A stretch of DNA of 64,000 nt, from assembly GCA_050331735.1 (NCBI GenBank), contig JBHJGN010000031.1, positions 64,001 to 128,000 of the forward strand, in the 5' to 3' direction. The notes below the pieces were generated by a model. It did not search any database. It was not told the DNA's origin and worked only from the letters and a program-made list of their open reading frames with translations. Positions within the stretch are counted from its first letter, which is position 1. Every line of letters starts with the position of its first letter. This document shows, piece by piece, positions 18,306-50,500 of this stretch. The DNA is from Cyanophyceae cyanobacterium (lineage in GTDB: Bacteria; Cyanobacteriota; Cyanobacteriia; Cyanobacteriales; JBHJGN01). Position numbers and translations under genes: made by a program.

Positions 18306-20030
18306 TTGAAATCCCGTAGCTACTGGCAGCTTCTTCCCTATATCCGCCCCCAAAGAGCCACCATTGCTCAGGCACTTGCCTGTACGTTAGCTTTTACCAG
18401 CTTCTGGCCCATCCTAGCCCGGATGGCAGGACGGATGGCCGCGTATATTGGGCAGGGAAACGTAGATAAACTGGCTCAGTTAGCCGGAGTCGCGGTAGCG
18501 GTCTTTTTGATGCGAGGGGTTGCCCAGTACGGGCAGGATTCCCTGATGGCCAAGGCGGCTTTAAACATTGCTTTAGAGCTGCGCACGACCGTTTATGCTC
18601 ATCTTCAAAAGCTCAGCCTCAACTATTTTGAAGGAGCTAAAACGGGCGATCTTTCCTATCGCTTAACCGAAGATGTGGATCGGGTTGGGGAAGTCATTAA
18701 CAAGTTTTTCCACGATTTTACTCCCTGTATTCTCCAGTTTGTGGTCGTGCTGGGGTATATGGTGTATCTCAACTGGCAGCTTACGATTGCCGTTTTTATT
18801 GTTGCCCCGTTGATGGCGCTGCTGATTGGAGCCTTTGGGGAACAATTGTTGAAGTTTTCTCGCCGCAGCCAACGTCGGATCTCCAACCTGTCTTCTCTCC
18901 TAACCGAAGTTTTTAGCGGCATTCGCTTGATCCAGGCGTTTGCCGCCGAGGACTATGAGATGAGTCGCTTTGTTCGCGAAGCCGAACAGAATCGACAGGC
19001 CAAGTATTTAGCTGAGAAGGTGAAAGCGCTTCAGTTTGTCGTGGTTGGTTTCTTCTACGCGATGAGCGTGGTGTTTCTTTTTCTGCTGGGGGGATGGCAA
19101 ATCTCTCAAGACAACCTGACGGGCATTGAGTTTATTAGCTATGTCGTTGCCGTCGCCATGCTCATCGATCCCATCGCCCACATCACCGATAACTACAATC
19201 AGTTTAAGCAGGGAGAAGCGTCGGTCGAGCGAGTCTTTGAACTAATGGCGCTCAAGCCCACGATTGAAGAACGCAAGGATGCGATCGCTCTTCCTCCGAC
19301 GACGGGCAAAGTAGAATATCGCTCTGTCCGTTTTTCCTATCAGCCAGGGCAACCAGTGCTCAAAGACATCAGCTTTCTGGCTTACCCAGGAGACACCATT
19401 GCTTTAGTCGGGGCATCTGGGGCAGGCAAAACAACAATTGTGAATCTACTGCCGCGTTTCTACAATCTTGACAGCGGTCAAATTTTGCTCGATAGCGTAG
19501 CGATTGAGGACGTGACTTTAAAGAGTTTGCGTCGCCAGATTGGGATTGTCCCTCAGGAAACGGTTCTGTTTTCAGGAACGATCGCCCAAAATATCGCTTT
19601 TGGTCAGGAGCGCTTTGCTATCGAGGACGTTGAAGAGGCGGCCCGGGTCGCTAACGCCCATCAGTTCATCGTGGAGTTTCCTCAAGGCTATCACACCTAC
19701 GTTGGCGAGCGAGGAGTGAAACTATCAGGCGGACAGAGACAGCGGATTGCCATTGCCCGTGCCGTGTTGCTCAACCCCAAAATTCTCATTCTTGATGAAG
19801 CGACTTCGGCGTTAGATTCTGAGTCGGAAACTCTAGTGCAGCAGGCCCTAGAACGGGTAATGAAAGAGCGCACCGTCTTTGTCATTGCTCACCGCTTGGC
19901 GACAGTCCGCCGCGCCAGCCGCATCCTCGTCCTCGAACACGGGCAAATTATTGAATCCGGTACCCACCAGCAATTGATGACGCAGGGGGGACGCTATGCT
20001 CGCTTCCACGCCCAGCAGTTCTCTGGATAG
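18306..20030 (+). CDS. MsbA-like ABC exporter (fused TMD + NBD)
   Basis: Six-TM domain; GASGAGKT, LSGGQRQRIAIAR, ILDEATSALD, IAHRL. Confidence 0.95.
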   Translation: MKSRSYWQLLPYIRPQRATIAQALACTLAFTSFWPILARMAGRMAAYIGQGNVDKLAQLAGVAVAVFLMRGVAQYGQDSLMAKAALNIALELRTTVYAHLQKLSLNYFEGAKTGDLSYRLTEDVDRVGEVINKFFHDFTPCILQFVVVLGYMVYLNWQLTIAVFIVAPLMALLIGAFGEQLLKFSRRSQRRISNLSSLLTEVFSGIRLIQAFAAEDYEMSRFVREAEQNRQAKYLAEKVKALQFVVVGFFYAMSVVFLFLLGGWQISQDNLTGIEFISYVVAVAMLIDPIAHITDNYNQFKQGEASVERVFELMALKPTIEERKDAIALPPTTGKVEYRSVRFSYQPGQPVLKDISFLAYPGDTIALVGASGAGKTTIVNLLPRFYNLDSGQILLDSVAIEDVTLKSLRRQIGIVPQETVLFSGTIAQNIAFGQERFAIEDVEEAARVANAHQFIVEFPQGYHTYVGERGVKLSGGQRQRIAIARAVLLNPKILILDEATSALDSESETLVQQALERVMKERTVFVIAHRLATVRRASRILVLEHGQIIESGTHQQLMTQGGRYARFHAQQFSG

Positions 20031-37286: not shown

Positions 37287-39038
37287 CTAAAGCAATCCCT
37301 CGGATTTAAGCTGATTGAGAGAAAAGCTGAGTTTCTTCTCGGTCTGCTGTAGGGGTAAACACTGACGGGCTGCTTCCTGTCGCTGGAGCAAATCACCCTC
37401 CGTTGGCTGAGTCTGACAACCACGCTGGACGAGGCGCTGATGAACTTTTTCTTGCCAGAGTCTCTCTCCATCCTTCATCGCTGCAATATCGGCGGTTGGC
37501 ACTTTTACCCGCAGCTTCAGCGGGATGCCTGCCTCCTGCTTATTCTGATAGCCCGGATTAATCAGAAGACACTGACCTGTCGGAAACTTGAGTAAATCTT
37601 CCGGCGCACACAGCTTACGGATCTTTTCCTGTTCGGCCATACTAGTGTTGCTTTTTCCGGCACTTCTGCCTTTGGTTTTCTGATGCGTCTGCAACTCTTC
37701 ATCTCCTAAAAAATCAGAAAATAGCTTTGCTGACTCGTATTCTTGGGGATTAAAAATGGCTTTGCTACCGCAGCCGCCTAAAATCGCACGAGCGATTTCT
37801 CTACCGTAGGTTTTTTCTAGCTGGTTAAGATTCTGAAACCCTAGAATACTGACTAAGCCATCTTCTCGATTTTCATTGAGCCACTGAACGAGGGCAGGCA
37901 GATACAGAGTCGGTAACTCATCAAGCGCTAGCACCAGCGGGTCTTGGCGCGGCTGGCTCACGTTGCGGTTAACGAGCATGTGCAGAATACTGGCGCACAG
38001 CGGACCAACTACATCCCGCCGCTGTCGGTCCATGCCTACAATGAGTAGCTGCTTGCCTGCTAAATCTAGGGGCAGGGTGGTCTCCCCACAAAAGGCTCCC
38101 AGAATGCTTGGCTTAGCGAAGCGGGTAAAGGCGTTGTTCGCCGTAGCAATGATGCTGGCAACGGTTTTTTCAGAATCGGCAACCGACAGCAGTTGACCAA
38201 AGCTAGCCAGCACCCAAGGATTTAGTTCGCCAAGCTTTTCTGCGTTGCGCAAGCGCGCTGTCAGACTATCTAAAGACAGCAGCGCCTGACACATTAAGAT
38301 ATCGGGGTAGGGAGTGCTTTTTGCCAACAGAAACACGGCTTCAGTAAGCTGATCTCCGGCCATTGTAAAGAACGGATCGTCACTGCCTTGGGTCATCAGC
38401 TTGAAATTTTGATTGAGCACTTCGGCAATCTGACGGGCCATCTCGGCATCGGTCGGACTGCGGAGAAAATCGAGTGGGTTGCAGACGGCAGATTCCGGAA
38501 AGCCAGGAGCAAAGATGTGCAGTTTGTATCCGGCTTTAAGGGCGTAAGCGGCTAAACGCGAAGTTTGGGTCGGGTATTTGAAGTCATAGAGAATAATCGG
38601 AAAGCCGCGATCGACAGCAGAACGCAGCACGGGATCGATGATGCTAAAGGTTTTACCAGACCCAGGACCACCGCAGACGGCTAAACCTCGCTGCAAATCC
38701 GGTAAATAAAGGGTTTGCTTTGATGGCGATGTCTGCGGACGGCCAACATAGAGAGAGACAGCGTTGCGGCGATTTTCCCGAATTTGAGCGCAAGCCAAAC
38801 GGCGAGCCGCCGCTGTTTCCGGCTTGCCGCCAAAATGAGCGTTGGCCTGCTTTTGGCGACGACGGCGATCGCCAAGGACAGAGAGACTCCCCAAACCAAT
38901 CAGACAGGCTAGCAGAATCAGACTATTGCTATTCAATAGCTCTTGGAAATTATCGGGGACTGGCAGCTCAACAGCTTGAGCTAAATGCCCACTGTTGGGC
39001 ATCTCTATTCTCGAGTTCTCCTCGACATTTCTAACCAT
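37287..39038 (-). CDS. virD4: Type IV coupling protein (VirD4/TraG/TraD-like)
   Basis: N-terminal TM; Walker A GGPGSGKT, YDFK, Walker B LDELP, GFQNLNQLEKTYG, FSDFLGDEE. Confidence 0.9.
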   Translation of the reverse strand: MVRNVEENSRIEMPNSGHLAQAVELPVPDNFQELLNSNSLILLACLIGLGSLSVLGDRRRRQKQANAHFGGKPETAAARRLACAQIRENRRNAVSLYVGRPQTSPSKQTLYLPDLQRGLAVCGGPGSGKTFSIIDPVLRSAVDRGFPIILYDFKYPTQTSRLAAYALKAGYKLHIFAPGFPESAVCNPLDFLRSPTDAEMARQIAEVLNQNFKLMTQGSDDPFFTMAGDQLTEAVFLLAKSTPYPDILMCQALLSLDSLTARLRNAEKLGELNPWVLASFGQLLSVADSEKTVASIIATANNAFTRFAKPSILGAFCGETTLPLDLAGKQLLIVGMDRQRRDVVGPLCASILHMLVNRNVSQPRQDPLVLALDELPTLYLPALVQWLNENREDGLVSILGFQNLNQLEKTYGREIARAILGGCGSKAIFNPQEYESAKLFSDFLGDEELQTHQKTKGRSAGKSNTSMAEQEKIRKLCAPEDLLKFPTGQCLLINPGYQNKQEAGIPLKLRVKVPTADIAAMKDGERLWQEKVHQRLVQRGCQTQPTEGDLLQRQEAARQCLPLQQTEKKLSFSLNQLKSEGLL

Positions 39039-39547
39039 GCAATTATGCGATCGCTTTCAACAAAGAGTTGTTTCTGCAAGCAAGTAATACCAAGCTATCT
39101 AGTGCTTGATCTTATTAATCGTTGTTGAAGACTATTTGGCTCATCTTCATAGTAAGTTTACGTCTGGCAACAATCTTTACGTACTCTTCAAACTATTCAT
39201 CAAACAGTACAGTAAACATTATTTAGTGGCAATGCTCAACTTTTTTCTAACACAGCAAGCCAAAATTGCCAATTTACAATAACTTTAAAAAATTGCGGAA
39301 ACCACGGAAATCTATAGATTCAGCATGGTTAATCTGCCTTGTTTAAGTAAAAACCAGCAGAAAAGTGTATAGCTAGCTGGCAGAATCGTTTTTTATGGAT
39401 TAATATTGACCTGCAAATAAAAGTTGTCTGTCCTGCTCGACTCCTCAAAAATGTTGTATTAGACAACAAAACTAACAGATTTTTATTAACAGCAAGCTTG
39501 ATTTAATTCAAGCGGCAAAAACTGCCTAGCCGTTTATCAACAGAACA

Positions 39548-40147
39548 ATGAAAAAAATCTCAAATGCACTCAGTAAATTCAAACAGCTTCGACTGACCAA
39601 ATACCAGCTTTGGCTCTGTGCGGCTCTTGTCGCCTGTGTCTATCTGTTAATTAACCACGCTACTGCCTTTACCTATTTAGGAGTTCCGCTCGCGTTAGGA
39701 ATTTTGATGTGGAAAGACCTGTGGCGGCAGACCGCTAAAGCCGTTGGTCCGGGGGGTAAATATATCCCAGAAATCGTTGCAGCCGTTGCGGCGATCGCTC
39801 TAATTTGGGGAGTGGGGATCGCTGAACCAGTGGGAGCGCAATTTTACCAGGATGCTCAAAACTTCTTTTGTGAGGAGCTAGTGGCTGGTACAGGTTCAGA
39901 CACCGAGAACGTGAAACGAGGCATTTCTGTCACCTTCAATGCGCTACGAGCCTTCTTCCTGATTTACATTGCCGTCTCCCTGATTCGAGTTGTCAATGCG
40001 GTGCGAGAAGATGAAGATTGGCAGACGATGGCGAGAACGCCAATTCTGGCCACTCTCATTGTCACAGTCGGAGATTTGCTCACCAACTTCTTTATCTCTG
40101 GCGACCCCAGCGACGGTGCCTGTGACACGGGCGGTAGTGGAGGATAA
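39548..40147 (+). CDS. T4SS pilin-like membrane protein (VirB2-like, cyanobacterial type)
   Basis: Leader ending AEPVGA-QF, then two hydrophobic helices around FNALRAFFLIYIAVSLIRVVNAVREDEDWQTMARTP; first gene of the operon. Confidence 0.65.
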   Translation: MKKISNALSKFKQLRLTKYQLWLCAALVACVYLLINHATAFTYLGVPLALGILMWKDLWRQTAKAVGPGGKYIPEIVAAVAAIALIWGVGIAEPVGAQFYQDAQNFFCEELVAGTGSDTENVKRGISVTFNALRAFFLIYIAVSLIRVVNAVREDEDWQTMARTPILATLIVTVGDLLTNFFISGDPSDGACDTGGSGG

Positions 40148-40162
40148 GCTTTAGTCACTGCT

Positions 40163-40531
40163 ATGCCTTCAGAGCGCTCTCAACCGATTAAAGTTAACCG
40201 CATTCTTGGAACTCAACCTCGTCTCGGACCTCTCCCTGCCGATCAAGTTCTGCCTTGGTCTCTATTCACTCTATTTTCCTACTTCATCTGTCAGGGATAC
40301 TACGACTTCGGCTGGCTGCCCATGGTGTTGCTAGATGGATGGCTCATTTCCACCTGGTGGATTCTCACTGGAGAGAGAAGCTGGCGTTTCCTGTCTAAGA
40401 TCTATCCTCCGGTTCCTCGGTGGGAGCGAGGTTGCCCCAAATACCACAGTTTTTTAGAAGATCACCGCTCATGGCACAAACCAAGAAGAAACTCGGCAAA
40501 AAGAGGGTCGGTTTCAAGAAGAACAAAGTAA
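40163..40531 (+). CDS. T4SS VirB3-like small membrane protein
   Basis: VNRILGTQPRLGPLPADQVLPW, two TMs, TWWILTGERSWRFLSK; directly precedes and overlaps the VirB4-like gene. Confidence 0.65.
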   Translation: MPSERSQPIKVNRILGTQPRLGPLPADQVLPWSLFTLFSYFICQGYYDFGWLPMVLLDGWLISTWWILTGERSWRFLSKIYPPVPRWERGCPKYHSFLEDHRSWHKPRRNSAKRGSVSRRTK

Positions 40532-43278
40532 CCCTCTCCCCGTTTGAAGATTTTCTGCATCTTGCTGCTCTCGTTCGGATTGCTTTAAGAGGTCGCCGAG
40601 TCGGAGCCTATCTACTGACCAAGGGACAAGGCAAAAGCCTGCGCTTTGTCTTTGGGTTTGAGTGTCAGGGCATTCACGCCACGCCTCGCTCCTCAGAAAC
40701 CGTGGAGACTGTCTTTAGTAACTTAGAGTCTGGCTTAAAAGAACTGCCCGGCGGCGAACTCCTCACGATCCACATGGGGTCATTCCGCGAGGAACGTCAG
40801 CGACAGGCTGAACTCGCTTCTCTGGTCCGCCACGCGCCCAACCTGGAGTCAAAATTTTTGCTAACCGGAGAACGCGCGCGAGTCCAGGAATTGACTCGAC
40901 TCGGCGTTCGCAAAGAGAAGTTCATTCGCATCTATGTAACCTACACTATTGAAACGGGTAACGTCGGCGCTCAAGATGCGGTAGAGAAGATCCTGGCACA
41001 GATGCAGGGAGTGTGGCATCGGTACACGGGTCAAAGAGAAGAAATGAAACAACGCCAGCTTCAGGAAAGTTTCACCCTAGCTTTTACTGACGGCTTTTGC
41101 CGCTGGGAGCAGATTCTCACCAATAAAATGGGGCTACCGCTGCGCCCCCTCGACGAGCAAGAACTGTGGGATGGTCTTTGGTCGCGATTCAACAGCAGCG
41201 AACCGACGCCGATTCCGCAACTGATTACGCTTGATAGTCGGGGCATAGCAGAAGAAATCAGAACAAAAACTCATGCAACCACGCTACTGCTCAGAGATCA
41301 TCTGCCGCAGGCAAGCGAATCTTGGCTAAAAGTTAAAGATCGCTACGTCGGCGCACTGACGTTTTTAGAAAAGCCAAGCGGTTGGGCCAATCGGTTAGCT
41401 CAGCTTCGCTATGTCTGGAACGTCATGGCCCGCGAACAGGTGCAGGATACCGAAGTATTTTGTCAATTGGCTCCAGCCAATCCTAAATTAGTGCAAATTG
41501 CCGTACAGCGGCTCCTCAAGCAATCTATCGTCACGGCTGACCTTGCCGAAGAGAAACAGTCGGCGGATGTGGCAGCGAAAGTTAAAGCCGAGCGCTCCTA
41601 CGAAGCGCAAAAGCAGATGTACGAAGGGGCGACTCCTCTCTACACGGGCATGACTATTTTAGTTCACCGCGATCGCCTCAGCGACCTCGATGAAGCCTGT
41701 CGCTTTCTCGAATCCTGCTTTCAACGTCCGGCTTGGGTGACGCGCGAGCTGAACTACACCTGGAAGATTTGGCTCCAAACTTTACCGATAGTGTGGGAGC
41801 GCCTGCTGGCCGTTCCCTATGACCGTCGCCAGCTCTACCTCAGCGATGAAGCCCCCGCTTTCATGCCGTTGGTGACAACGCAATCGCTCGATAAGCAGGG
41901 CTTTCAGCTCATTGCCGATGAGGGAGGAGCACCTATTTATATTGACTTATTCACGCAGCACCGCAACCTGGCTCTGTTTGCCACTACTCGTGCCGGCAAA
42001 TCGGTGCTTGTTGCCGATATCCTCAAGCAAGCATTAGCTCACCAGATGCCCATCGTGGCCATCGACTTCCCAAAGCCAGACGGCAGCAGTACTTTTACCG
42101 ACTTTACCCACTTTATGGCTCACAACGGAGCCTACTTCGATATTTCCCGCGAGTTCAACAATCTCTTTGAGAAACCCGACTTGCGGGTTTTAGAGCCTGA
42201 CGAACAGGAGTCCCGCTTTCTCGACTACCGCGACTTCCTAGAAGGAGCGCTGATGACAATGGTAGGCGGGAATAGTCGAGACCCGTTACTGGGTCAAACA
42301 ATTCGGTCTTTACTCAATTTGGCCCTCAACGCCTTCTTTGCCGATTCCCACATTGACCAGCGATATCAAGCCGCTCTAGAAGCGGGAATCGGCTCACCCG
42401 CGTGGCACAATATTCCCACTCTTCGAGACTTCCTTGAATTCTGTTCTCCGCAGCATCTCAATTTAGAATCAATTTCCGGCAACGTCAACGAAGCTCTTCA
42501 GCAAATTATCCTGCGCCTTCAGTTTTGGCTCGGCAGTCGCGTCGGTCGAGCGATTTCGCGTCCTTCGAGCTTTCCGACTAATGCTCAACTGATCGTCTTT
42601 GCGCTAACGAATCTATCCAACGAAGAAGATGCGGCGATTTTAGCGCTGTCGGCGTACTCAGCCGCGTTGCGTCGCGCCCTTGCTGCCCCTGCGTCTATCT
42701 TTTTCATTGATGAAGCCCCCATTCTCTTTGAATTTGAGGAAATTGCTAGCTTGGTGGGGAGGCTGTGCGCAAACGGTGCTAAAGCCGGAGTTCGAGTCAT
42801 TCTCAGCGCTCAAGACCCCGATACCATTGCTAAATCGCAACATTCATCGAAGATCTTCCAAAACCTCAGCACCAGATTAATTGGTCGCATTCAACCAGCA
42901 GCGGTGGAGAGCTTCGAGCGCATTCTTAAGTATCCGCGCGAGATCGTTGCCAAAAATGCTGGCGAAAGCTTCTTTCCGTCTCGCTCAGGAATCTACAGTC
43001 AGTGGCTGCTTGATATTGATGGTCTTTACACCTACTGTCGCTTCTATCCCGCTTACGTCCTGCTGGCAGCAGTGGCGAACAACCCAGATGAGCAGATTGT
43101 GCGTCGCTGGTTCTTGCAGCACTACGAGGATAAGTTTATTGCGCTGACAGAGTTTGCCAAACATTTAGTCAACTCGATTCGCAACGGTCAACCCCTGCGT
43201 ATTCCTCAGCAAGCACCGCAACCTCTTCTTGACGTTTCATCTGAACTGAAAAGCTTGAACGGAGCTGGTTCTAAATAG
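40471..43278 (+). CDS. virB4: VirB4-like T4SS ATPase
   Basis: About 935 aa; Walker A ATTRAGKS, Walker B FFIDEAP, GAKAGVRVILSAQD; start MAQTKKK at 40471. Confidence 0.85.
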   Translation: MAQTKKKLGKKRVGFKKNKVTLSPFEDFLHLAALVRIALRGRRVGAYLLTKGQGKSLRFVFGFECQGIHATPRSSETVETVFSNLESGLKELPGGELLTIHMGSFREERQRQAELASLVRHAPNLESKFLLTGERARVQELTRLGVRKEKFIRIYVTYTIETGNVGAQDAVEKILAQMQGVWHRYTGQREEMKQRQLQESFTLAFTDGFCRWEQILTNKMGLPLRPLDEQELWDGLWSRFNSSEPTPIPQLITLDSRGIAEEIRTKTHATTLLLRDHLPQASESWLKVKDRYVGALTFLEKPSGWANRLAQLRYVWNVMAREQVQDTEVFCQLAPANPKLVQIAVQRLLKQSIVTADLAEEKQSADVAAKVKAERSYEAQKQMYEGATPLYTGMTILVHRDRLSDLDEACRFLESCFQRPAWVTRELNYTWKIWLQTLPIVWERLLAVPYDRRQLYLSDEAPAFMPLVTTQSLDKQGFQLIADEGGAPIYIDLFTQHRNLALFATTRAGKSVLVADILKQALAHQMPIVAIDFPKPDGSSTFTDFTHFMAHNGAYFDISREFNNLFEKPDLRVLEPDEQESRFLDYRDFLEGALMTMVGGNSRDPLLGQTIRSLLNLALNAFFADSHIDQRYQAALEAGIGSPAWHNIPTLRDFLEFCSPQHLNLESISGNVNEALQQIILRLQFWLGSRVGRAISRPSSFPTNAQLIVFALTNLSNEEDAAILALSAYSAALRRALAAPASIFFIDEAPILFEFEEIASLVGRLCANGAKAGVRVILSAQDPDTIAKSQHSSKIFQNLSTRLIGRIQPAAVESFERILKYPREIVAKNAGESFFPSRSGIYSQWLLDIDGLYTYCRFYPAYVLLAAVANNPDEQIVRRWFLQHYEDKFIALTEFAKHLVNSIRNGQPLRIPQQAPQPLLDVSSELKSLNGAGSK

Positions 43279-43324
43279 GTAGGGATCGCCCGCTCAACAA
43301 GCTGGATAACTCAGGAGTATAGCG

Positions 43325-43777
43325 ATGTTTCAACAATTTAAAAGCCTACGCCGAATAGCCGTCGCCTTCCTCTTGCTGGCTGCTGCGACGGTAATTTTAG
43401 AGCGCCATTGGGCGATCGCTAATTCACCCTCAACCCTTCCACCACACGAGGAAACTATGTTTCGGTTTGAAAATTTCGATCGCGCCGGCAACGACCGAGA
43501 AATTGAGCAGGCAATCAAGAAACGGCTGCTTGACATGCATCCCATTGGTTCTGATCCTGATGAGCTAATCGAAAGTCTAGAAGCTGCTGAAGCTTACTGT
43601 CGCGATGAGTCATCCCAGGACCAAGAATTTTCTACGCATCTGTGTCGGTATCGATACCCTCTTGGCATTCCCGTCAGCAACCCTCGGTTTACGGCAGAAG
43701 CGTTTCGGTCAGTCACAATTTACTACGACGAAACTGGCATTGTTGATATTGAAGTGAGCGTTGCTCATACTGCATAG
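43325..43777 (+). CDS. Exported hypothetical protein (candidate immunity protein)
   Basis: AGGAG RBS; signal-peptide-like N-terminus; FRFENF...LLDMHPIGSDPDELIESLE..A.C...C.Y core with two Cys. Confidence 0.8.
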   Translation: MFQQFKSLRRIAVAFLLLAAATVILERHWAIANSPSTLPPHEETMFRFENFDRAGNDREIEQAIKKRLLDMHPIGSDPDELIESLEAAEAYCRDESSQDQEFSTHLCRYRYPLGIPVSNPRFTAEAFRSVTIYYDETGIVDIEVSVAHTA

Positions 43778-43822
43778 CTTTCATAGCTAAGAACATCCAG
43801 GATTGGAATAGGAGTGCGCTAA

Positions 43823-44698
43823 ATGGGACATAAAATCGAGGTCAGATCCTACGAAATTGACCAGCTAGACGAAACAGAGAACAATAATTGGTTTAATCGC
43901 GCTGTTGATGCAAGTCATGCTTTTATTGTGTATGCAGATGACCAAGGCAATGAGCAAATTCTGCGAGGCGGACCGAATCCAGAGACGGGCAACATTTTAG
44001 CGAATTACGGAGAATACAGTCAAAACGGTGTAGATGGAACGAACCCCGTTAGTTGGAGAGGCGAACCGCTGCGAGAAACACCAAGAGAAATTCGCTCTGT
44101 TGTGGTTGCTGAGGGAGGAGCAGAACTCGCCGCCGTTTTTGCCGCGATGAAGGAGCAGGCAGACGCAATTAATAAGGCACGAATTCCCTACATTGCTTGG
44201 GGACACAACGTCCAAAACAGTAACTCGGTTGTCGCTACGGTACTAGAAGAAGTTGGACTAGAGCCGAATTTTCCTCCGGGTTGGCACCCTGGGAGGAACG
44301 TCAATCTACTGGAGGAACATTTTCGGCAAGGAAATTCCAAACCAAGCAGCGCTCCTGCCTCTAGCCCATCACCAAAGGGTGAATCTAAGCCCACTGCTCA
44401 GCTACCTGCTAATGCTTACGAACAGGTTGCTGCTTACGTGCGTAATGCTTTAGCTAGTCCCAATTTAGCTGGATTAGCACTGGACAACCGCATTGCCCAA
44501 GCACTGATCAATGGCGAGACTGATCAAGCTGCTGCCAAAATTTTGAGCCAAAGTCCTAACGCACAGCAGGCAATGCAAGCAGGAAAACAGCCGGAAGCCT
44601 TTAGCTACATTCAAGCCAGACTAGAGCAGGGAACACAGTTAAATAATCAAACAGCTCAGGTGCAGTCGAACCGCGAACCAGAAATGAGGCTAGAGTAG
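43823..44698 (+). CDS. Hypothetical protein, candidate T4SS effector
   Basis: AGGAG RBS; no signal peptide; N-terminal domain SHAFIVY..ILRGGP..PY...QNSNSVVATVL..PG, Pro/Ser linker, helical Gln-rich C-terminal domain. Confidence 0.8.
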   Translation: MGHKIEVRSYEIDQLDETENNNWFNRAVDASHAFIVYADDQGNEQILRGGPNPETGNILANYGEYSQNGVDGTNPVSWRGEPLRETPREIRSVVVAEGGAELAAVFAAMKEQADAINKARIPYIAWGHNVQNSNSVVATVLEEVGLEPNFPPGWHPGRNVNLLEEHFRQGNSKPSSAPASSPSPKGESKPTAQLPANAYEQVAAYVRNALASPNLAGLALDNRIAQALINGETDQAAAKILSQSPNAQQAMQAGKQPEAFSYIQARLEQGTQLNNQTAQVQSNREPEMRLE

Positions 44699-44935
44699 GG
44701 CTTGCATCAAGCTTTTGAAGGGTTTTTGCTCTGAAAGACAAGGAAATTTCACAAAATCTATAACTAAGATAGATTAATTAAAGCTTTTATGAATATTGCT
44801 GCTATTGGCACCAATATTCTTTAACAAACAATATCAGAAAGCTATATTTGTAGACAAGAACCAGCGACATCAGCAGTTGTACGAGTTGACAATTGCTTTC
44901 ATATTTCCTCACTCAATTTCTTTAGGAGCCTGTAA

Positions 44936-45829
44936 ATGTCCAACCAACCAAAAGCTATCAGCATTAGGAGAACTCGTCGGGTGGCGATCGCTGGTAGCCT
45001 ATCGTTAATCTTACTAGCCTGGAGCGCTAAACCTGCTAAAGCCGGAATCTTTGGTGGTTTGTTTGGCTACTTTACTAACTATATTGAAAATTTTGTCAAC
45101 GAAGTCGCATCTTACTACATCGATTATGTAGACGATTTTATTGATTACGTCGAACTGGGTGCGGATGTTTTAATGGGCAAATTAGAAGAGCGTTTACCGA
45201 GCATGATTGCAACGACAGTATTAGGCGATGACAAATGGATCGATCCAGAAACCTACAGCCCAGGAGCACTGGGATTGCCTAGCCCCATTGAGTTGACAAC
45301 ACAGATTAAAAAAGATATCTACGAAGGCAATGCAGCTTCTTTAGGTCTCGAAACCACTGCTGGCGGACGAGCCGAAGAAGAAGCAAGACGCAGCGAACGA
45401 GCGTTATCTAAAGAGATTAGTGATGCTGTATATCTAAGTCAGGAAGCTCAGGAACAGCATCAGATTAATATTGAAGAGACTCAAGCTTTGGTAGAGAGAA
45501 CTAACGAAGTTTCTAAAGCCTCAGCAGGGCTATCGGAGAAGGCGGATGCTGCCAACTCTAGTCAAGAGGTGTTGAAGCTGTTATCGCAACAAATTGCCCT
45601 TGATTCTCGGCAAAATGCCGAACTAACCTCGCTTGTCGGCAGCTTGAAAACGCAGCATTTGATGGCAACGATGGTTGAGCAAAGTCAAGTGGCGGCAGTA
45701 ATCCAGCAGTCTGAGTATTTAGCTGGACTTTACAGAAGCGAGGGTCTGAAAAAACAGATTAGCGGTGCTAATACAATTAGAGCCGGAAAAAATCTTCAGG
45801 GCTACGCGACGTTTGTCGGAGGACTGTAG
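44936..45829 (+). CDS. Exported helical T4SS component (VirB5-like)
   Basis: Signal peptide ending PAKA; GALGLP, then Gln-rich coiled coil with SSQEVLK; lies between VirB4-like and VirB6-like genes. Confidence 0.6.
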   Translation: MSNQPKAISIRRTRRVAIAGSLSLILLAWSAKPAKAGIFGGLFGYFTNYIENFVNEVASYYIDYVDDFIDYVELGADVLMGKLEERLPSMIATTVLGDDKWIDPETYSPGALGLPSPIELTTQIKKDIYEGNAASLGLETTAGGRAEEEARRSERALSKEISDAVYLSQEAQEQHQINIEETQALVERTNEVSKASAGLSEKADAANSSQEVLKLLSQQIALDSRQNAELTSLVGSLKTQHLMATMVEQSQVAAVIQQSEYLAGLYRSEGLKKQISGANTIRAGKNLQGYATFVGGL

Positions 45830-45831
45830 GC

Positions 45832-45950
45832 GCTGGCGAATAAATTTGCGGCTACAAAAACCAAGTTTGTCTTCATAGATTCTAGACAATCAAGAGTTTA
45901 AGCAACCTGCGCGGCAGGTTCTGTTAGGGTGACAGCGGTTTTAGCCGCTA
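45832..45950. repeat. Degenerate MITE-like palindromic element
   Basis: GGCGAATAAATTTGCGGCTAC left end, internal hairpin AACCTGC-GCG-GCAGGTT (45904-45920), GCGGTTTTAGCCGC right end. Confidence 0.5.
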
Positions 45951-46059
45951 ATAACCTCAAAGTTAATGCAGATTTTCTGCCGTAGAAGCGTTAGTTTCTT
46001 GGCCAAGATGGGAACGATAAAAATGTAGCTGGTTCATAGTTGCTAGTGCCCTTGGACCA

Positions 46060-46785
46060 TTGATAATGATGAGATTTTTTTCTGTACGCCTAATCAGCAT
46101 AGCTGTTGTTCTGTTTCACCTTTCCCTACTAGGAGGAACGATGAGGCTGCCATCAGCACAGGCTCAATCTAACCCTCCTCTAAACTTTGACCCGACTGCC
46201 CCAACTCCTGCGCCAACTCCAACAACTTCCAATAACCAGGACTTCTTCTGCGGTCAGGGATGGGAATTTAATGGCTTTCCCTATGACTTGTTTGCCTGGG
46301 AGGAGATTCCTTGGGGTATGCCGGGAGATGAGTTTTTAAGAAGATACAAACAGCGAGTAGAGGAGTGTTCGTCAACAGTTTTTAGTGGTGAGCGAGGAAT
46401 AAATGCTACCCATTCATTTGAGAATAAGAGTCAGAAAGATCATACAACTGTATATTTTAGATTTCATGGAGAAAACAATACTCTTTCCGAAATTTATCTA
46501 AATCGTGTTCCCAGTTACATGAGAGATTATCTCTTGCAGCATTATGGAGTGCCTGCTCAAGCCAACTACACGCCAGTCAAAGTTCGTGTTGGTTGTGTTC
46601 GTGAAGGGATTGTCTGTCCTCCTGTCTTTGAATACCGAGGAGAGGAACTCTGGAGTGGAATCTGGCGGCTGTCAGAGACCTTCATTCAGTTAGGCACGCC
46701 CAATAGCATAACTATTAAACCCGTTGACTCTGACCTACAAAGTCGTCCTGTGTGCGATGAGTTTCTGATCTTCAAATTTTGTTAG
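46060..46785 (+). CDS. Exported hypothetical protein
   Basis: Signal peptide ending SAQA, Pro/Thr linker PTAPTPAPTPTT, Cys-containing globular domain; exact start uncertain. Confidence 0.7.
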   Translation: MIMMRFFSVRLISIAVVLFHLSLLGGTMRLPSAQAQSNPPLNFDPTAPTPAPTPTTSNNQDFFCGQGWEFNGFPYDLFAWEEIPWGMPGDEFLRRYKQRVEECSSTVFSGERGINATHSFENKSQKDHTTVYFRFHGENNTLSEIYLNRVPSYMRDYLLQHYGVPAQANYTPVKVRVGCVREGIVCPPVFEYRGEELWSGIWRLSETFIQLGTPNSITIKPVDSDLQSRPVCDEFLIFKFC

Positions 46786-48035
46786 CCATGCTTCCAGGAG
46801 TAGTAAAGTTTACTCATTTATCATTCTGGCTGCTGGTGCAAGCTGGAGATACTTGTGATGGCGCTGGTAATTTTGACCTAGATCTCTCGGATCAGTTTGC
46901 TGAGGATGTCACGGTAGCAGAAAAAGTCAAGGAGAGTTTTGATGGACTGTGGGATGTGGCGCTATCTCCTACCAGTTTTGTTTATAGTTCTCTCTCTGAT
47001 ATTGGTCTACTGTTAGCAGTAGTTACCGTTACTGTGTTTATAGTACGTTGGGGGCGGGAGTTATTAGAGTCTGGAATTTCCAGTAAATCGTTTGGAGAAA
47101 TTATTTGGCCCTTAGTTGTAGCAGTTTTCTTAAGTAACAATGGACAAATTCTCGCTAGCACGACTCGCGCTATGCAGAACTACGTTCAAGAGCAGGAGGA
47201 AACAATTGTCAACGGAGCGTTTCTGGATGTGTTTATTGGAGAAACTCTTGAATCGGCTTTTCGGCAGTTAGTTGGTATCACGACAGTTCCTTTGGGCATT
47301 GGCTCGATTTTAGCTCAGTGTACTAGTCACGAAAATCCAGCGTTTTGCTTATCAGGACCACCAGTATATGAAGGAGAGGAAATTGAGAGATTTGAGTCTG
47401 GGGCGCTTCAACAGGCAATTTGTGCTTTGAATCCTTATGTAGAATCAGGAGAAAATCCTAAATTAGCTCAGCTCAGCAAAGAACTCGAAAAAGAACAAGA
47501 GAAGTTACATTCAATCCTTAAAAACGAAGTGCCAGGTTCTTCTGATGAAGAAGATACTTTCACTGTAGGCATTCCGCCTGAAATATACAAACTTATGTCT
47601 GCGAGTGAGGATTCTGGGTTGATGCAGTTCTTTATGGGGTCTGGAGCCGCATTTGTGTGGTTGACTGAACTCGCACTATTTATTACTGCCCTACTTGGAC
47701 CTCTCGCTCTTGGCTTGAGCCTGCTGCCTGTTGGCGGAAAAGCAGTCTTCGCTTGGCTGACAGGCTTCCTCTCTGTTGCTTTTGCAAAGCTGTTTTATTT
47801 CATTTTGACGGGGCTATCTTCGATTGTGGTGCTCGATGCTATTCAGGATGTGTCCCTAACAGACTTTGTGGACTCGATTCTGGTGGGAATCTTTGTCGGA
47901 GCACTGGCACCGCTGCTTTCCTTGGCAGTGTGCGTGAGCGGCGGTCGAGCGGTATTTCAAAGTTTAGTCGGCTACGTAGTTCCGGCGGTTGATTCGACGG
48001 TGCGGCGGCGGCAGATTTATCGAGCAGGAAAGTAA
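46779..48035 (+). CDS. VirB6-like polytopic T4SS membrane protein
   Basis: IIWPLVVAVFLSNNG; C-terminal TMs ELALFITALLGPLALGLSLLPVGGKAVFAWLTGF...APLLSLAV..GG. Confidence 0.75.
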   Translation: MLAMLPGVVKFTHLSFWLLVQAGDTCDGAGNFDLDLSDQFAEDVTVAEKVKESFDGLWDVALSPTSFVYSSLSDIGLLLAVVTVTVFIVRWGRELLESGISSKSFGEIIWPLVVAVFLSNNGQILASTTRAMQNYVQEQEETIVNGAFLDVFIGETLESAFRQLVGITTVPLGIGSILAQCTSHENPAFCLSGPPVYEGEEIERFESGALQQAICALNPYVESGENPKLAQLSKELEKEQEKLHSILKNEVPGSSDEEDTFTVGIPPEIYKLMSASEDSGLMQFFMGSGAAFVWLTELALFITALLGPLALGLSLLPVGGKAVFAWLTGFLSVAFAKLFYFILTGLSSIVVLDAIQDVSLTDFVDSILVGIFVGALAPLLSLAVCVSGGRAVFQSLVGYVVPAVDSTVRRRQIYRAGK

Positions 48036-48059
48036 ACAGATAAGCATTTTTGTAAGGGA

Positions 48060-48818
48060 TTGAGGGCTGTGGTGCAGATACTTCCAGAGAAAAAATCGAG
48101 AAACTACCTAGCGCTGTTTGTGCTGCTTACCGTGATTATGCAGGGGGCGAGTGTGCTGCTGCTGCTCTTTCAGGGGGCAATTATCAATCGCCTGAGCAAA
48201 AACCCGCCCACTCTGGTACAGCTTGTGGATGGAGAATCGATTCGCGTCGAGCCGATGGATTACCTAGAGCGTACGCCCCAAACAATCCGCGAGTTTGTTG
48301 AAGATACCATGACCATGCTAATGACCTGGTCGGGGGAACTTCCGGTCGAGTCGGCGCAGGATGAAAAGGTGCCGAGGCGCGACCCAGGAGTGACGATAGC
48401 GACGGAATCGGGTCGCTCTCAAAGGATTGCCACCTCTACCTGGCAAGCAGGATTTGCTCTTTCTGAAGACTTTCGGGTTGAGTTTTTGCAGGAACTGACT
48501 CGCCTCACTCCTCAGCGAATCTTTAGCAGAAATCAGGATACGCAGGTTGTTTTGGTGATACTCGATTTGTCTGAACCGAAGAAGATTGAAGAGGGTAAAT
48601 GGAAGCTGGCAATGGTCGCTAACTTACTGTTTTTTAGGGACGGTAGTTCCCTCGGAGAGGGAGTCCCGTTTAACAAAGAAGTTTATGTGCATACTGTCGT
48701 TGCGCCAGAAGTGCCTGATGATGCGACTCCTCTAGCTCGGAAAATTTATCAGGTGCGACAAGCTGGCTTGGAAATCTACGCCATGCGTGATTTAGAGGCG
48801 GAGGAAATTTTGGAGTAG
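48060..48818 (+). CDS. VirB8-like bitopic T4SS protein
   Basis: One N-terminal TM, PPTLVQLVDG, RTPQTIREFV...MTWSG, ALSEDFR, FNKEVYV. Confidence 0.65.
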   Translation: MRAVVQILPEKKSRNYLALFVLLTVIMQGASVLLLLFQGAIINRLSKNPPTLVQLVDGESIRVEPMDYLERTPQTIREFVEDTMTMLMTWSGELPVESAQDEKVPRRDPGVTIATESGRSQRIATSTWQAGFALSEDFRVEFLQELTRLTPQRIFSRNQDTQVVLVILDLSEPKKIEEGKWKLAMVANLLFFRDGSSLGEGVPFNKEVYVHTVVAPEVPDDATPLARKIYQVRQAGLEIYAMRDLEAEEILE

Positions 48819-48911
48819 ATATACCTCTATAGAATGGGGGAAAAGAGTAAGGGAGAAAGGAAACTCAAAATTCGATAAAGTGGGGATACATAAAGTGACA
48901 GGGATCAAACT

Positions 48912-49478
48912 GTGACAACGCTGGTTAAGTGGACGGTTGAAGACTATCACCGGATGATTGAGGCAGGTATCCTCTCCGAACGACGCTGCGAGTTAATCGG
49001 AGGAAAAATCGTTGAGATGGCGCCGGAAGGACCGCTGCATCGGTTTATCAATGAAACGGTCGGTGACTATTTACGCCAGCAATTGGGAACTGCGGCTCTC
49101 GTTTCAGAAGCTCATCCCATTACTCTCGTAGATTCAGAACCAGAACCAGATATTGCCATTATTCAACCTCCTCGGAGTCGATACAGGAATCGCCATCCTG
49201 CCCCCCAGGATATTTACTGGCTAATCGAAGTTGCCGATACGACCCTTGCTGAAGATACAGGGGAAAAATTGACAGCGTATGCTAAAGCAGGTATCCCTGA
49301 GTATTGGGTCATCGACGTTCAGCGATCGCAAGTCAAAGTCTTTCGCCAGCCCCTCGAAGAGCAATACCGAAGCGAGACAACTGTGACGGCGGGAACAGTT
49401 TCGCCACTAGCCTTTGCTGATGTTGCCATTTCTGTAGAACGATTGTTGGGGGTAAGGAATAGCGAGACTCAGCTTTAG
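48912..49478 (+). CDS. Uma2-family endonuclease
   Basis: WTVEDYHRMIEAG, SEPEPDIAI, LIEVADTT, YAKAGIPEYWVID. Confidence 0.92.
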   Translation: MTTLVKWTVEDYHRMIEAGILSERRCELIGGKIVEMAPEGPLHRFINETVGDYLRQQLGTAALVSEAHPITLVDSEPEPDIAIIQPPRSRYRNRHPAPQDIYWLIEVADTTLAEDTGEKLTAYAKAGIPEYWVIDVQRSQVKVFRQPLEEQYRSETTVTAGTVSPLAFADVAISVERLLGVRNSETQL

Positions 49479-49573
49479 CCTTGGCGAGCGATCGCACCGA
49501 TGCCAAGTTGCCATTTGAGACAATCTTCTATTCACAATACTCACTAGACGAGTAGTTGTTTCATGGTTTCGAC

Positions 49574-50500
49574 TCAGCGCGGAACGTTTAACGCTCCGTT
49601 GTTTCTCAGCCAAAGTTTCTGGTCTTCAGTGAATCCTTCTGCGTTTGTAAAAGTCGCGCCTGCTACAGTACACTCCGTTAAATCAACGTCGTCCCATACT
49701 GTATCTTCCACATTAGCATCTCGCAAATCAGCGTTTCTTAAACTAACCTGCGTTAATATTGACCCTTCTAAGCTGGCGGAAAACAAGGAAGCTTGAGTAA
49801 GATCTGAGGACTTAATTTGAGTATTTTGTAAACTAGCACGATTTAAATCTGCCTGTCGCAGAATAACAGTTTCGATTTCTGCTGCTCTGAGGTTAACACC
49901 AATTAGATCAGCTCCCGTAAAATCGGCTCTGGTGATACAGGCGCGGCTCAAATTAGCTTTTTCCAGATTTGCCTGCTGCCAAATTGTTCCCTGAAGATTA
50001 GCCGCTTCTAACGAAGCTTGACGAAGATTGGCCCCGCTAAAATTGCTATTAAGAAAAGTAGCCGCTCCCAAATTTGCTGCCTCTAAATTTGCCCGACAAA
50101 AGTTAGTGTTTTCTCCTTTGGCTTCTCTAAAATCCACTCTCTTTAAAACTGCTGCATAAGCCTCAGCATTATGAAGAGTGGCTCCATAAAATTTGGCATT
50201 TTCGGCCTTGGCCTCTCTAAGGTTGGCTCGTTCCAGGGAGGCACTGTTGAGCATAGCGTAGGCAAGATTGGCCCGAATTAGTTCTGTGCCTGTTAAAGTA
50301 GCAAACATCAGCGTTGCTTCCGAAAAGTTTGTGTCTCGGCAAGATGCTGCGGAAAGATTAGCGCCACGAAGATACGCTGCGGTAAAGTCTCCTCCATCTA
50401 GCTTGGTTTGCTGTAGATCGATGTGGCTTAGCTCCGCTTCATAAAAAGATTGTCCCAGTCTCAGTCTCATTAAGACTTCATCGGGAGAAAATAGCGACAT
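49574..50500 (-). CDS. Pentapeptide repeat protein
   Basis: Long run of A(N/D)Lxx repeats. Confidence 0.92.
   Translation of the reverse strand: MSLFSPDEVLMRLRLGQSFYEAELSHIDLQQTKLDGGDFTAAYLRGANLSAASCRDTNFSEATLMFATLTGTELIRANLAYAMLNSASLERANLREAKAENAKFYGATLHNAEAYAAVLKRVDFREAKGENTNFCRANLEAANLGAATFLNSNFSGANLRQASLEAANLQGTIWQQANLEKANLSRACITRADFTGADLIGVNLRAAEIETVILRQADLNRASLQNTQIKSSDLTQASLFSASLEGSILTQVSLRNADLRDANVEDTVWDDVDLTECTVAGATFTNAEGFTEDQKLWLRNNGALNVPR

Follow-up and report, generated by a model that had tools for sequence, protein, structure and literature searches.

A candidate effector–immunity gene pair with a predicted Ser-type hydrolase in a cyanobacterial type IV secretion gene cluster

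Introduction

In the bactericidal type IV secretion systems (T4SSs) of Xanthomonas, Stenotrophomonas and Lysobacter, termed X-T4SSs, an exported immunity gene (X-Tfi), often encoding a lipoprotein, is located directly upstream of the effector gene (X-Tfe); the systems are chromosomal, and one such pair lies in the T4SS locus whereas others are dispersed (PMC6536674). X-Tfe effectors are signal-less proteins with variable N-terminal heads and a shared Gln-rich C-terminal domain of about 100–120 amino acids (aa). The present study concerns two genes with a comparable layout, ORF150 and ORF291 (open reading frames, ORFs, of 150 and 291 aa), which are located directly 3' of a VirB4-like gene in a cyanobacterial T4SS gene cluster. 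The pair is contained in a 64-kb stretch of DNA (hereafter, the window) which corresponds to positions 64,001–128,000 of contig JBHJGN010000031.1 in the genome assembly GCA_050331735.1 of a Cyanophyceae cyanobacterium (G000). The machine here is of the cyanobacterial class MPF_C, whereas that of X-Tfe is of the VirB/MPF_T class, and only two candidate effectors were found in this genome.

Effectors with a permuted NlpC/P60 core, in which the His precedes the nucleophile, are known from type VI secretion systems (T6SSs). TseH of Vibrio cholerae (PDB 6V98) and the Salmonella phospholipase Tox-Act1 are such interbacterial effectors, and both have cognate immunity genes (PMC12994826). Published work on permuted NlpC/P60 enzymes points as much to substrates with lipid ester or acyl bonds as to peptidoglycan, if not more, and TseH exhibits phospholipase activity in a liposome assay (PMC12994826).

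MPF_C is one of eight T4SS classes, and the 2014 survey which defined it states that its authors could find no study, whether experimental or computational, of conjugative systems in cyanobacteria (PMC4027160). A literature search covering titles and the first parts of abstracts yielded no paper in which a cyanobacterial T4SS is linked to the killing of other bacteria, and a paper on a cyanobacterial T4SS and HIP1 (PMC13756078) does not contain the words effector, relaxase or VirB4. A 2019 review of bactericidal T4SSs predicted the existence of systems with recognition signals other than the XVIPCD domain (PMC6536674).

A Predicted Permuted Papain-Like Hydrolase Domain in ORF291

An earlier reading of the window from its sequence only had described a 150-aa protein with an export signal and two Cys residues, a signal-less 291-aa protein encoded 45 nt further on and an AGGAG ribosome-binding site (RBS) in front of each gene, all of which are present. 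It had also pointed out motifs in ORF291, namely SHAFIVY (aa 31–37), RGGP (aa 48–51), PY (aa 122–123), QNSNSVVATVL (aa 131–141) and PG (aa 156–157). These motifs are found as quoted and are more than chance occurrences because they coincide with conserved columns of a real protein family.

An exhaustive HMMER search of 1.84 billion representative sequences with ORF291 yielded 63 proteins at E ≤ 0.001, only two of which, ORF291 itself and P0003, reach E ≤ 1e-10. The matches cover approximately aa 27–155 in all proteins except P0014, which matches the C-terminus only. An alignment of 63 rows including ORF291 (A1) was therefore built from the other 62 proteins and P0002, a protein with 78% identity. 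Members which carry names are called 'hypothetical protein' or 'calcium-binding protein', and the family is unannotated. The closest relatives (P0003, P0004 and P0009) gave no family match, and profiles of NLPC_P60, LRAT, TseH, DUF3750, Lnb_N and similar families do not match ORF291 above threshold.

In A1, Tyr123, Asn132 and Asn134 are invariant (63 of 63 rows each), and His32 is retained in 62 rows, Gly42 in 61, Arg48 in 58, Gly49 in 62, Gly50 in 61 and Pro51 in 56. Position 44 is Glu in 52 rows and Gln in seven. Position 133 is occupied by Ser in 56 rows, Cys in six and Ala in one; this Ser/Cys alternation suggests that position 133 behaves as the nucleophile position, with a chemistry of the Ser type. 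ORF291 has Ser133 and contains no Cys that could substitute for it, in agreement with the previous proposal that Ser replaces the catalytic Cys. ORF291 also contains no hydrophobic 19-mer.

In the AlphaFold2 (AF2) model constructed on A1, the predicted local distance difference test score (pLDDT) is about 95 throughout the core of the region of aa 1–170. His32 is located in a strand (aa 30–38), Glu44 in the adjacent strand (aa 44–51) and Ser133 at the first turn of a helix (aa 133–143), and Glu44 is the likely third active-site residue. The permuted papain-like group has this same order of elements, in which the His is followed 12 positions further on by a polar residue and then by a nucleophile at the start of a helix, and a third residue 12 positions after the His is the spacing of the LRAT type, as for Glu44 in ORF291.

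A Foldseek search of the PDB placed the T6SS effector TseH first, CLN5 second and human PPPDE1 third, all with E-values above 0.001. An independent structural scan against 48,161 chains also gave TseH as the closest match to aa 1–158 of the model (123 aa aligned, root-mean-square deviation 3.2), with a Z score of 8.6 that is barely above the common range of the tool. The other chains listed for this part are CLN5 (Z 7.3), DUF862 deSUMOylase (Z 6.8), Aichivirus 2A (Z 6.8), the Bacillus cysteine peptidase 3kw0 (Z 6.0), YiiX (Z 5.2) and PLAAT4 (Z 4.7), the remaining matches of the scan being to the helical C-terminus. All the chains listed over aa 1–158 are circularly permuted papain-like or NlpC/P60-type enzymes. 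Structure prediction and fold searching of this region thus bear out the expectation of a permuted papain-like fold with a conserved His before the nucleophile, and aa 1–170 of ORF291 very probably constitute a Ser/His hydrolase domain of this group (hereafter, the N-domain).

The link of ORF291 to named papain-like families is a structural one, drawn from the predicted model. TseH and Tox-Act1 share the permuted core with ORF291 but have no detectable sequence relationship to it; their nucleophile is Cys, and they belong to T6SSs, whereas ORF291 has Ser and is encoded in a T4SS operon. Likewise, PPPDE/DUF862, CLN5, LRAT/PLAAT, YiiX and the picornavirus 2A H-box/NC proteins resemble ORF291 in fold and in the sequence in which their catalytic elements occur, but are Cys enzymes with cellular or viral housekeeping roles and give Z scores of 4.7–7.3. 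The previous view that ORF291 is a periplasm-acting hydrolase is supported as regards the hydrolase fold; as regards the substrate, it needs to be amended to take in lipid ester or acyl bonds in addition to peptidoglycan (PMC12994826).

Sporadic Distribution and Alternative Secretion Carriers of the N-Domain

RTX repeats are present in 26 of the 63 aligned relatives, in which the N-domain is located at the extreme N-terminus of large RTX proteins. In three relatives, the N-domain is located C-terminal to eCIS_core. Fusion of the domain to other secretion carriers, which had been suggested as a test of the effector idea, is therefore observed. The fused homologues (e.g., a Methylomonas 'calcium-binding protein' and an Anthocerotibacter hypothetical protein) are related to ORF291 in sequence, with E-values down to 4.5e-9, and contain the same invariant residues; they differ in having RTX repeats or the eCIS core instead of the C-terminal module of ORF291 described below. 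Neighbors in a protein atlas, taken as leads only, include TseH, DUF3750, Lnb_N, eCIS-core and YD-shell clusters.

The N-domain profile matches only two of the 401 genomes sampled from the phylum, G000 and G034, indicating a sporadic distribution, and tblastn of the N-domain against plasmids gave no match. The patchy distribution and the use of several export carriers suggest that the N-domain behaves like the head of an effector or toxin, and it is probably a secreted effector-type domain.

A further search for N-domain loci gave seven non-self matches, of which only that in G034 (E 1.7e-9) is credible. L004 (E 3.9e-4) and L005, L007, L008 and L009 (E 0.004–0.01, with similar ORF lengths) are regarded as chance matches because the profile found only G000 and G034 in the 401 genomes. 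The L006 match is a histidine kinase on inspection. Beside the G034 relative, in divergent orientation, lies a gene for a 129-aa membrane-anchored protein with an N-terminal hydrophobic helix and two Cys residues. ORF150 is not detectably related to this protein (no BLASTP match; hhalign probability 0.5%).

A C-Terminal Module Shared by Unrelated Enzymatic Heads

The region of aa 185–291 of ORF291 (hereafter, the C-module), which had been overlooked in the sequence-only reading, provides the strongest argument for an effector. It matches the C-terminus of a second protein encoded in the same genome. This protein is 738 aa in length, has no signal peptide, and contains SLT, Peptidase_M23 and PG_binding_1 domains followed by the C-module. 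Directly upstream is a gene for a 247-aa predicted lipoprotein with the lipobox LLSSC and no Pfam family. No T4SS genes are located in the vicinity of this second module-bearing gene.

A profile search of an index of 5.8 billion clusters identified exactly five carriers of the C-module: ORF291, two of its metagenomic relatives, the metagenomic protein P0014, in which the module follows an AHH nuclease domain (PF14412, E 8.5e-13), and the SLT–M23–PG_binding_1 protein of G000. Three types of head are thus represented. In the genome, a constant C-module is combined with unrelated signal-less enzymatic heads, an exported gene is located directly upstream of both copies, and one pair is within the T4SS locus and the other elsewhere, as for X-Tfe and X-Tfi.

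When the five C-modules are aligned (A2), 20 columns are invariant, and the sequence at the extreme C-terminus, ...PE(L/M)xL(E/G), is conserved. Gln accounts for 14% of the C-module residues but for only 4% of those of the N-domain. The AF2 model predicts, with modest confidence (pLDDT 50–83), five helices over aa 196–282 and no strands. In BID domains of Bartonella effectors and relaxases, a C-terminal helical-bundle T4SS signal is likewise combined with a tail needed for transfer (PMC8740702), and the C-module is helical with a conserved tail. However, the C-module has no sequence match to BID domains and its tail is not positively charged (the net charge of the last 30 aa is −1); the likeness is one of topology only.

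Further searches with A2 added no confirmed carriers. Scanning six-frame ORFs of this genome up to E 10 revealed only the two known copies. Scans of genome contigs and metagenome contigs gave 32 and 138 pattern matches, respectively, none of which was confirmed. Among the 401 genomes of the phylum sample, A2 matched two, G000 and G480 (E 6.5e-5; match not inspected), and among 41 relatives two, including a weak match in G024 (E 0.0065; not inspected). P0009 has no C-module according to hhalign.

In the Anthocerotibacter N-domain protein P0004, the place of the C-module is taken by a region (aa 176–292) which resembles aa 342–458 of P0075 (BLASTP E 2e-6, 23% identity over 120 aa), a part corresponding to the middle of the SLT–M23 protein of G000. 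At the sequence level, this shared module points to domain shuffling among these proteins.

ORF150, a Candidate Periplasmic Immunity Protein

ORF150 has a single hydrophobic stretch (aa 7–31) with K6, R9 and R10 at its N-terminal side and a putative cleavage site A-I-A|N, read by eye, after it. C92 and C107, the only Cys residues, are invariant in the two homologues that were found, which are 84% and 55% identical to ORF150. No family was detected for ORF150 in Pfam, NCBIfam, PADLOC or PHROG. The AF2 model has two helices and a four-stranded sheet over aa 48–149. Its fold matches are weak and mixed, including NTF2-like or cystatin-like proteins, BamE/OsmE-like proteins, one T6SS immunity protein and one anti-CRISPR.

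Homologues of ORF150 and ORF291 are contained in Logan contigs which are both stated to be 1786 bp, suggesting apparent linkage of the two genes in a second organism. The ORF150 homologue is more diverged, with 53% identity in the mature part compared with 84% for the N-domain and 76% for the C-module of ORF291. ORF150, the 241-aa ORF located further downstream, the 247-aa lipoprotein upstream of the second module-bearing gene and the 129-aa protein of G034 exhibit no similarity to each other. The chances that ORF150 is the immunity protein of ORF291 seem about even.

The Pair is Absent From Related T4SS Clusters

Of 201 genomes sampled from the order, 59 have homologues of the VirB4-like protein. 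Twenty related loci were fetched and compared with the genes of the window by tblastn at E ≤ 1e-3. VirB4 is present in all 20, the 122-aa, 418-aa and 252-aa genes of the cluster are each present in 18, and the 199-aa gene in most. ORF150, ORF291 and the 241-aa ORF are each present in none of the 20, indicating that ORF150 and ORF291 are cargo rather than core machinery and constitute an insert particular to this lineage. The possibility that both genes are conserved structural MPF_C components is contradicted by this absence.

In related loci, an exported gene for about 235–250 aa, of the type of the 297-aa ORF297 here, is found within approximately 1 kb after VirB4, followed by the 418-aa gene. 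ORF297 itself has weak tblastn matches in three of the 20 loci; L046, L052 and L056 have an exported gene at the same position, and that of L056 (L056_235) matches ORF297 at E 2e-4. In 31 non-core ORFs of the related loci, no hydrolase, toxin or relaxase family was recognized.

In relatives, VirB10-like, VirB9-like and following genes are located between the 252-aa gene and the coupling protein gene. In G000, the remaining core genes are found on another contig (C8:51.4–54.8 kb; L067:7371–10844), flanked by housekeeping genes; they encode a Pro-rich VirB10-like protein (494 aa), an exported VirB9-like protein (248 aa) and a 423-aa exported protein. The T4SS is therefore complete, but its genes are divided between two loci on the chromosome. 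Only four relaxase families (PF03432, PF01076, PF08751 and PF03389) were searched for, and none was found in the genome, which is 99.98% complete. A chromosomal T4SS without a detected relaxase fits protein secretion better than conjugation, although this is suggestive only.

Organization of the Locus

The window is a segment of the chromosome, with NdhM and inorganic pyrophosphatase genes at 33.9–34.9 kb. The T4SS gene cluster spans 37.3–48.8 kb and consists of a coupling protein gene, two small membrane genes, the VirB4-like ATPase gene and six more plus-strand genes (Table 1). The VirB4-like protein matches TIGR00929 only weakly (E 1.3e-9; 36.9 bits against a cut-off of 643), and its identity is also based on the adjoining clear coupling protein and the syntenic homologues in the genomes of the order. 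The listed GTG start of this ORF lies within the 122-aa gene, with an overlap of 112 nt (40420–40531); the true start is probably further downstream, because alignments with homologues begin only at about residue 20. The 418-aa and 252-aa genes would be VirB6-like and VirB8-like, respectively, judging from topology and the class description (PMC4027160). The 241-aa protein has no Pfam, NCBIfam, PADLOC or PHROG family.

Table 1. Features of the T4SS gene cluster in the window and of the second candidate pair in the same genome.
Feature	Position	Strand	Basis or remark
Type IV coupling protein (VirD4/TraG-like)	37287–39038	−	TrwB_AAD_bind 2.1e-27, T4SS-DNA_transf 4.9e-24, TraG-D_C 6.3e-22
Two conserved small membrane genes (199 aa, 122 aa), before VirB4 in related clusters	39548–40531	+	tblastn, hydrophobic segments
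VirB4-like ATPase, 952 aa	40420–43278	+	Weak TIGR00929 and TraC matches; synteny
AGGAG RBS of ORF150	43313–43317	+	7 nt before ATG at 43325
ORF150, exported or membrane-anchored, 150 aa; candidate periplasmic immunity protein	43325–43777	+	ATG start
AGGAG RBS of ORF291	43810–43814	+	8 nt before ATG at 43823
ORF291, 291 aa	43823–44698	+	ATG start
ORF291 aa 1–170, predicted permuted papain-like (NlpC/P60-type) hydrolase domain, putative His32/Glu44/Ser133 centre	43823–44332	+	AF2 model, fold matches, conservation
ORF291 aa 171–184, start of Ser/Pro-rich linker, predicted disordered	44333–44374	+	pLDDT <50 over aa 172–213
ORF291 aa 185–291, Gln-rich helical C-module with conserved end; candidate secretion/recognition signal	44375–44695	+	Alignment A2, AF2 model
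ORF297, 297-aa exported coiled protein; type directly following VirB4 in related clusters	44936–45829	+	
241-aa exported 6-Cys protein; second non-core, lineage-specific insert	46060–46785	+	Missing from all 20 related loci
Two conserved T4SS genes, one polytopic membrane (418 aa) and one bitopic (252 aa)	46779–48818	+	Each in 18 of 20 related loci
Second candidate pair (lipoprotein and SLT/M23 protein)	G000 contig C83:16181–19252 (L064:4182–7253)		

Directly after the last T4SS gene, a gene for a Uma2-family putative endonuclease (PF05685, E 3e-35) is located at 48912–49478 on the plus strand; in related clusters, this position is occupied by the VirB10-like gene.

In the region of 39000–49600, 13 promoter-like sites were found compared with 11.3 expected from shuffled sequences, and ten terminator-like sites compared with 10.9. 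As these counts are at the shuffled expectation, co-transcription of the pair with VirB4 is neither supported nor excluded.

Proposed Mechanism and Alternative Explanations

In the proposed mechanism, the coupling protein would recognize the C-module and feed ORF291 into the adjacent cyanobacterial-class T4SS. In the envelope of the recipient, the Ser133/His32 centre would hydrolyze an acyl ester or amide bond. By analogy, the substrate would most likely be the acyl chain of a membrane phospholipid, which is favored because TseH exhibits phospholipase activity (PMC12994826), and less likely a peptidoglycan peptide. In the periplasm of the producer, ORF150 would block the enzyme which leaks there or comes from a sister cell. 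The combined interpretation, i.e., that ORF291 is a T4SS-delivered antibacterial effector and ORF150 its periplasmic immunity protein, is an evenly balanced proposition; delivery by the adjacent T4SS through the C-module, taken separately, falls slightly short of an even chance.

Several points weigh against this interpretation. As for the N-domain, ORF291 has no match in Pfam or NCBIfam (E ≤ 0.1), and none in PADLOC or PHROG; the N-domain profile gives only chance matches to PDB sequences, and the structural Z scores are moderate. In addition, in an A1 column which is Asp in 60 rows and Glu in two, ORF291 has Ser77 (codon 44051–44053), although P0002 retains the Asp; an alternative alignment (A4) pairs this column with Asp71 of ORF291 instead. 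Judging from these alignments, loss of the near-invariant Asp is ambiguous and the ORF291 enzyme could be impaired. The relative in G034 (C4:442–1421; L003/L068), the only one whose genomic context was examined, is a standalone protein of 158 aa which retains all the conserved residues and has no T4SS operon around it. Most N-domain relatives are RTX proteins, which are substrates of type I secretion systems (T1SSs) with C-terminal signals, so that the C-module could direct export by some system other than the T4SS.

The C-module, moreover, is known from only five proteins, three of which are on short contigs. Its predicted all-helical structure differs from that of XVIPCD, which has an alpha-alpha-beta-beta-beta arrangement of two helices and a three-stranded sheet (PMC8740702). 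Against Pfam at E ≤ 1, the five C-modules gave three unrelated weak matches only, in a further difference from XVIPCD. The Pfam library scanned presumably contains an XVIPCD model. As for ORF150, the AF2 model is confident in only one of five models, and the best fold matches (2pww, Z 6.1; T6SS immunity protein BtiO, Z 5.3) are within the noise range. Finally, the GC content at third codon positions is 0.39–0.44 across 43325–48035, from ORF150 to the 418-aa gene, compared with 0.55 in VirB4 and the 252-aa gene; as the low-GC block includes core genes, composition does not mark ORF150 and ORF291 as a recent insert.

Three other explanations of the pair need to be considered in view of the above evidence. 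The position of ORF291 inside the T4SS operon, directly after VirB4, might mean that it is a machine-associated envelope-remodeling enzyme, analogous to VirB1 or CwlT, which opens the thick cyanobacterial wall or envelope locally for T4SS assembly, with the C-module serving for docking and ORF150 as a periplasmic partner or regulator. The other module-bearing protein of the genome combines SLT, M23 and PG-binding domains, a mix resembling the VirB1-like hydrolases of monoderm T4SSs. The class description of MPF_C reports no homologue of VirB1, leaving this role vacant (PMC4027160). However, an assembly enzyme would not be expected from the comparative data, in which the pair is missing from all 20 related clusters, where the other genes of the operon are retained, and 31 non-core ORFs of those clusters show no hydrolase family. 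In ORF291 itself, VirB1-type features are not found: it has neither an SLT match nor a hydrophobic N-terminus, the SLT domain being on the other module-bearing protein, and it lacks a signal peptide with which to reach the periplasm alone. The presence of the same C-module on an AHH nuclease, an enzyme with no part in assembly, and of the N-domain family otherwise on RTX and eCIS carriers further makes a role in remodeling unlikely.

The carriers themselves raise the possibility that ORF291 is an effector or exoenzyme exported by a different route, e.g., through a C-terminal signal of the T1SS type, in which case its position in the T4SS cluster would be an accident of insertion and ORF150 might or might not be its immunity protein. 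RTX proteins are exported by T1SSs via C-terminal signals, the C-module has a conserved extreme C-terminus, the second module-bearing gene lies away from the T4SS genes and an ABC exporter is encoded in the window at 18306–20030. Yet this exporter gene is 23 kb away in an unrelated context, and ORF291 has no RTX repeats (no HemolysinCabind match). The combination of a T4SS-locus pair and a dispersed pair, each with an upstream exported gene, conforms to the T4SS paradigm (PMC6536674), and a structured module of about 107 aa shared by three types of head has more in common with XVIPCD or BID domains than with short T1SS signals (PMC8740702). Export by another route is thus improbable. Quite improbable, too, is the explanation that ORF291 is inactive as a toxin, being a Ser-variant pseudoenzyme or a cytoplasmic housekeeping lipid or protein acyl-hydrolase, next to an unrelated ORF150. 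The replacement of Cys by Ser, the possible loss of the near-invariant Asp, the housekeeping nature of the structural relatives CLN5, PPPDE, PLAAT and YiiX, and the solitary G034 relative amid ordinary genes would all be compatible with it; so would the finding that the sequencing runs carrying the sequence include no RNA run, the sole run being metagenomic and maybe the assembly source. Nevertheless, Ser is the norm of the family, and the N-S-N surround, His and Tyr are kept, which argues for selection on catalysis; RTX and eCIS_core carriers place the family outside the cell, and the ORF150 homologue is seemingly linked to the ORF291 homologue in a second organism.

Implications

The T4SS effector–immunity layout of ORF291 and ORF150 would be that of X-Tfe and X-Tfi, in which the exported immunity gene precedes the effector gene (PMC6536674). 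What is new is that the layout occurs in another T4SS class, that the signal module is not the same and that the enzyme belongs to an unannotated family of the Ser type. The locus is a concrete candidate for the predicted bactericidal T4SSs with a signal other than XVIPCD. If the T4SS-delivered effector interpretation is true, the MPF_C class would gain a testable role in protein secretion, and the C-module would be a new address module of effectors, usable to mine further effectors. The N-domain would then represent an unannotated Ser-nucleophile branch of permuted NlpC/P60 enzymes, which RTX and eCIS proteins of other phyla carry as well.

A broader and tentative possibility, which we consider somewhat doubtful, is that the MPF_C T4SS here is a contact-dependent antibacterial weapon rather than a conjugation machine. 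This chromosomal and split system would read a helical Gln-rich signal of about 105 aa on at least three warheads, i.e., the Ser-type permuted NlpC/P60 hydrolase, the wall-degrading SLT–M23 enzyme and the AHH nuclease, with each periplasm-acting effector accompanied by an upstream exported immunity protein. If so, a function would be assigned to an MPF_C system for the first time, and this would be the first T4SS outside Proteobacteria with a bactericidal role.

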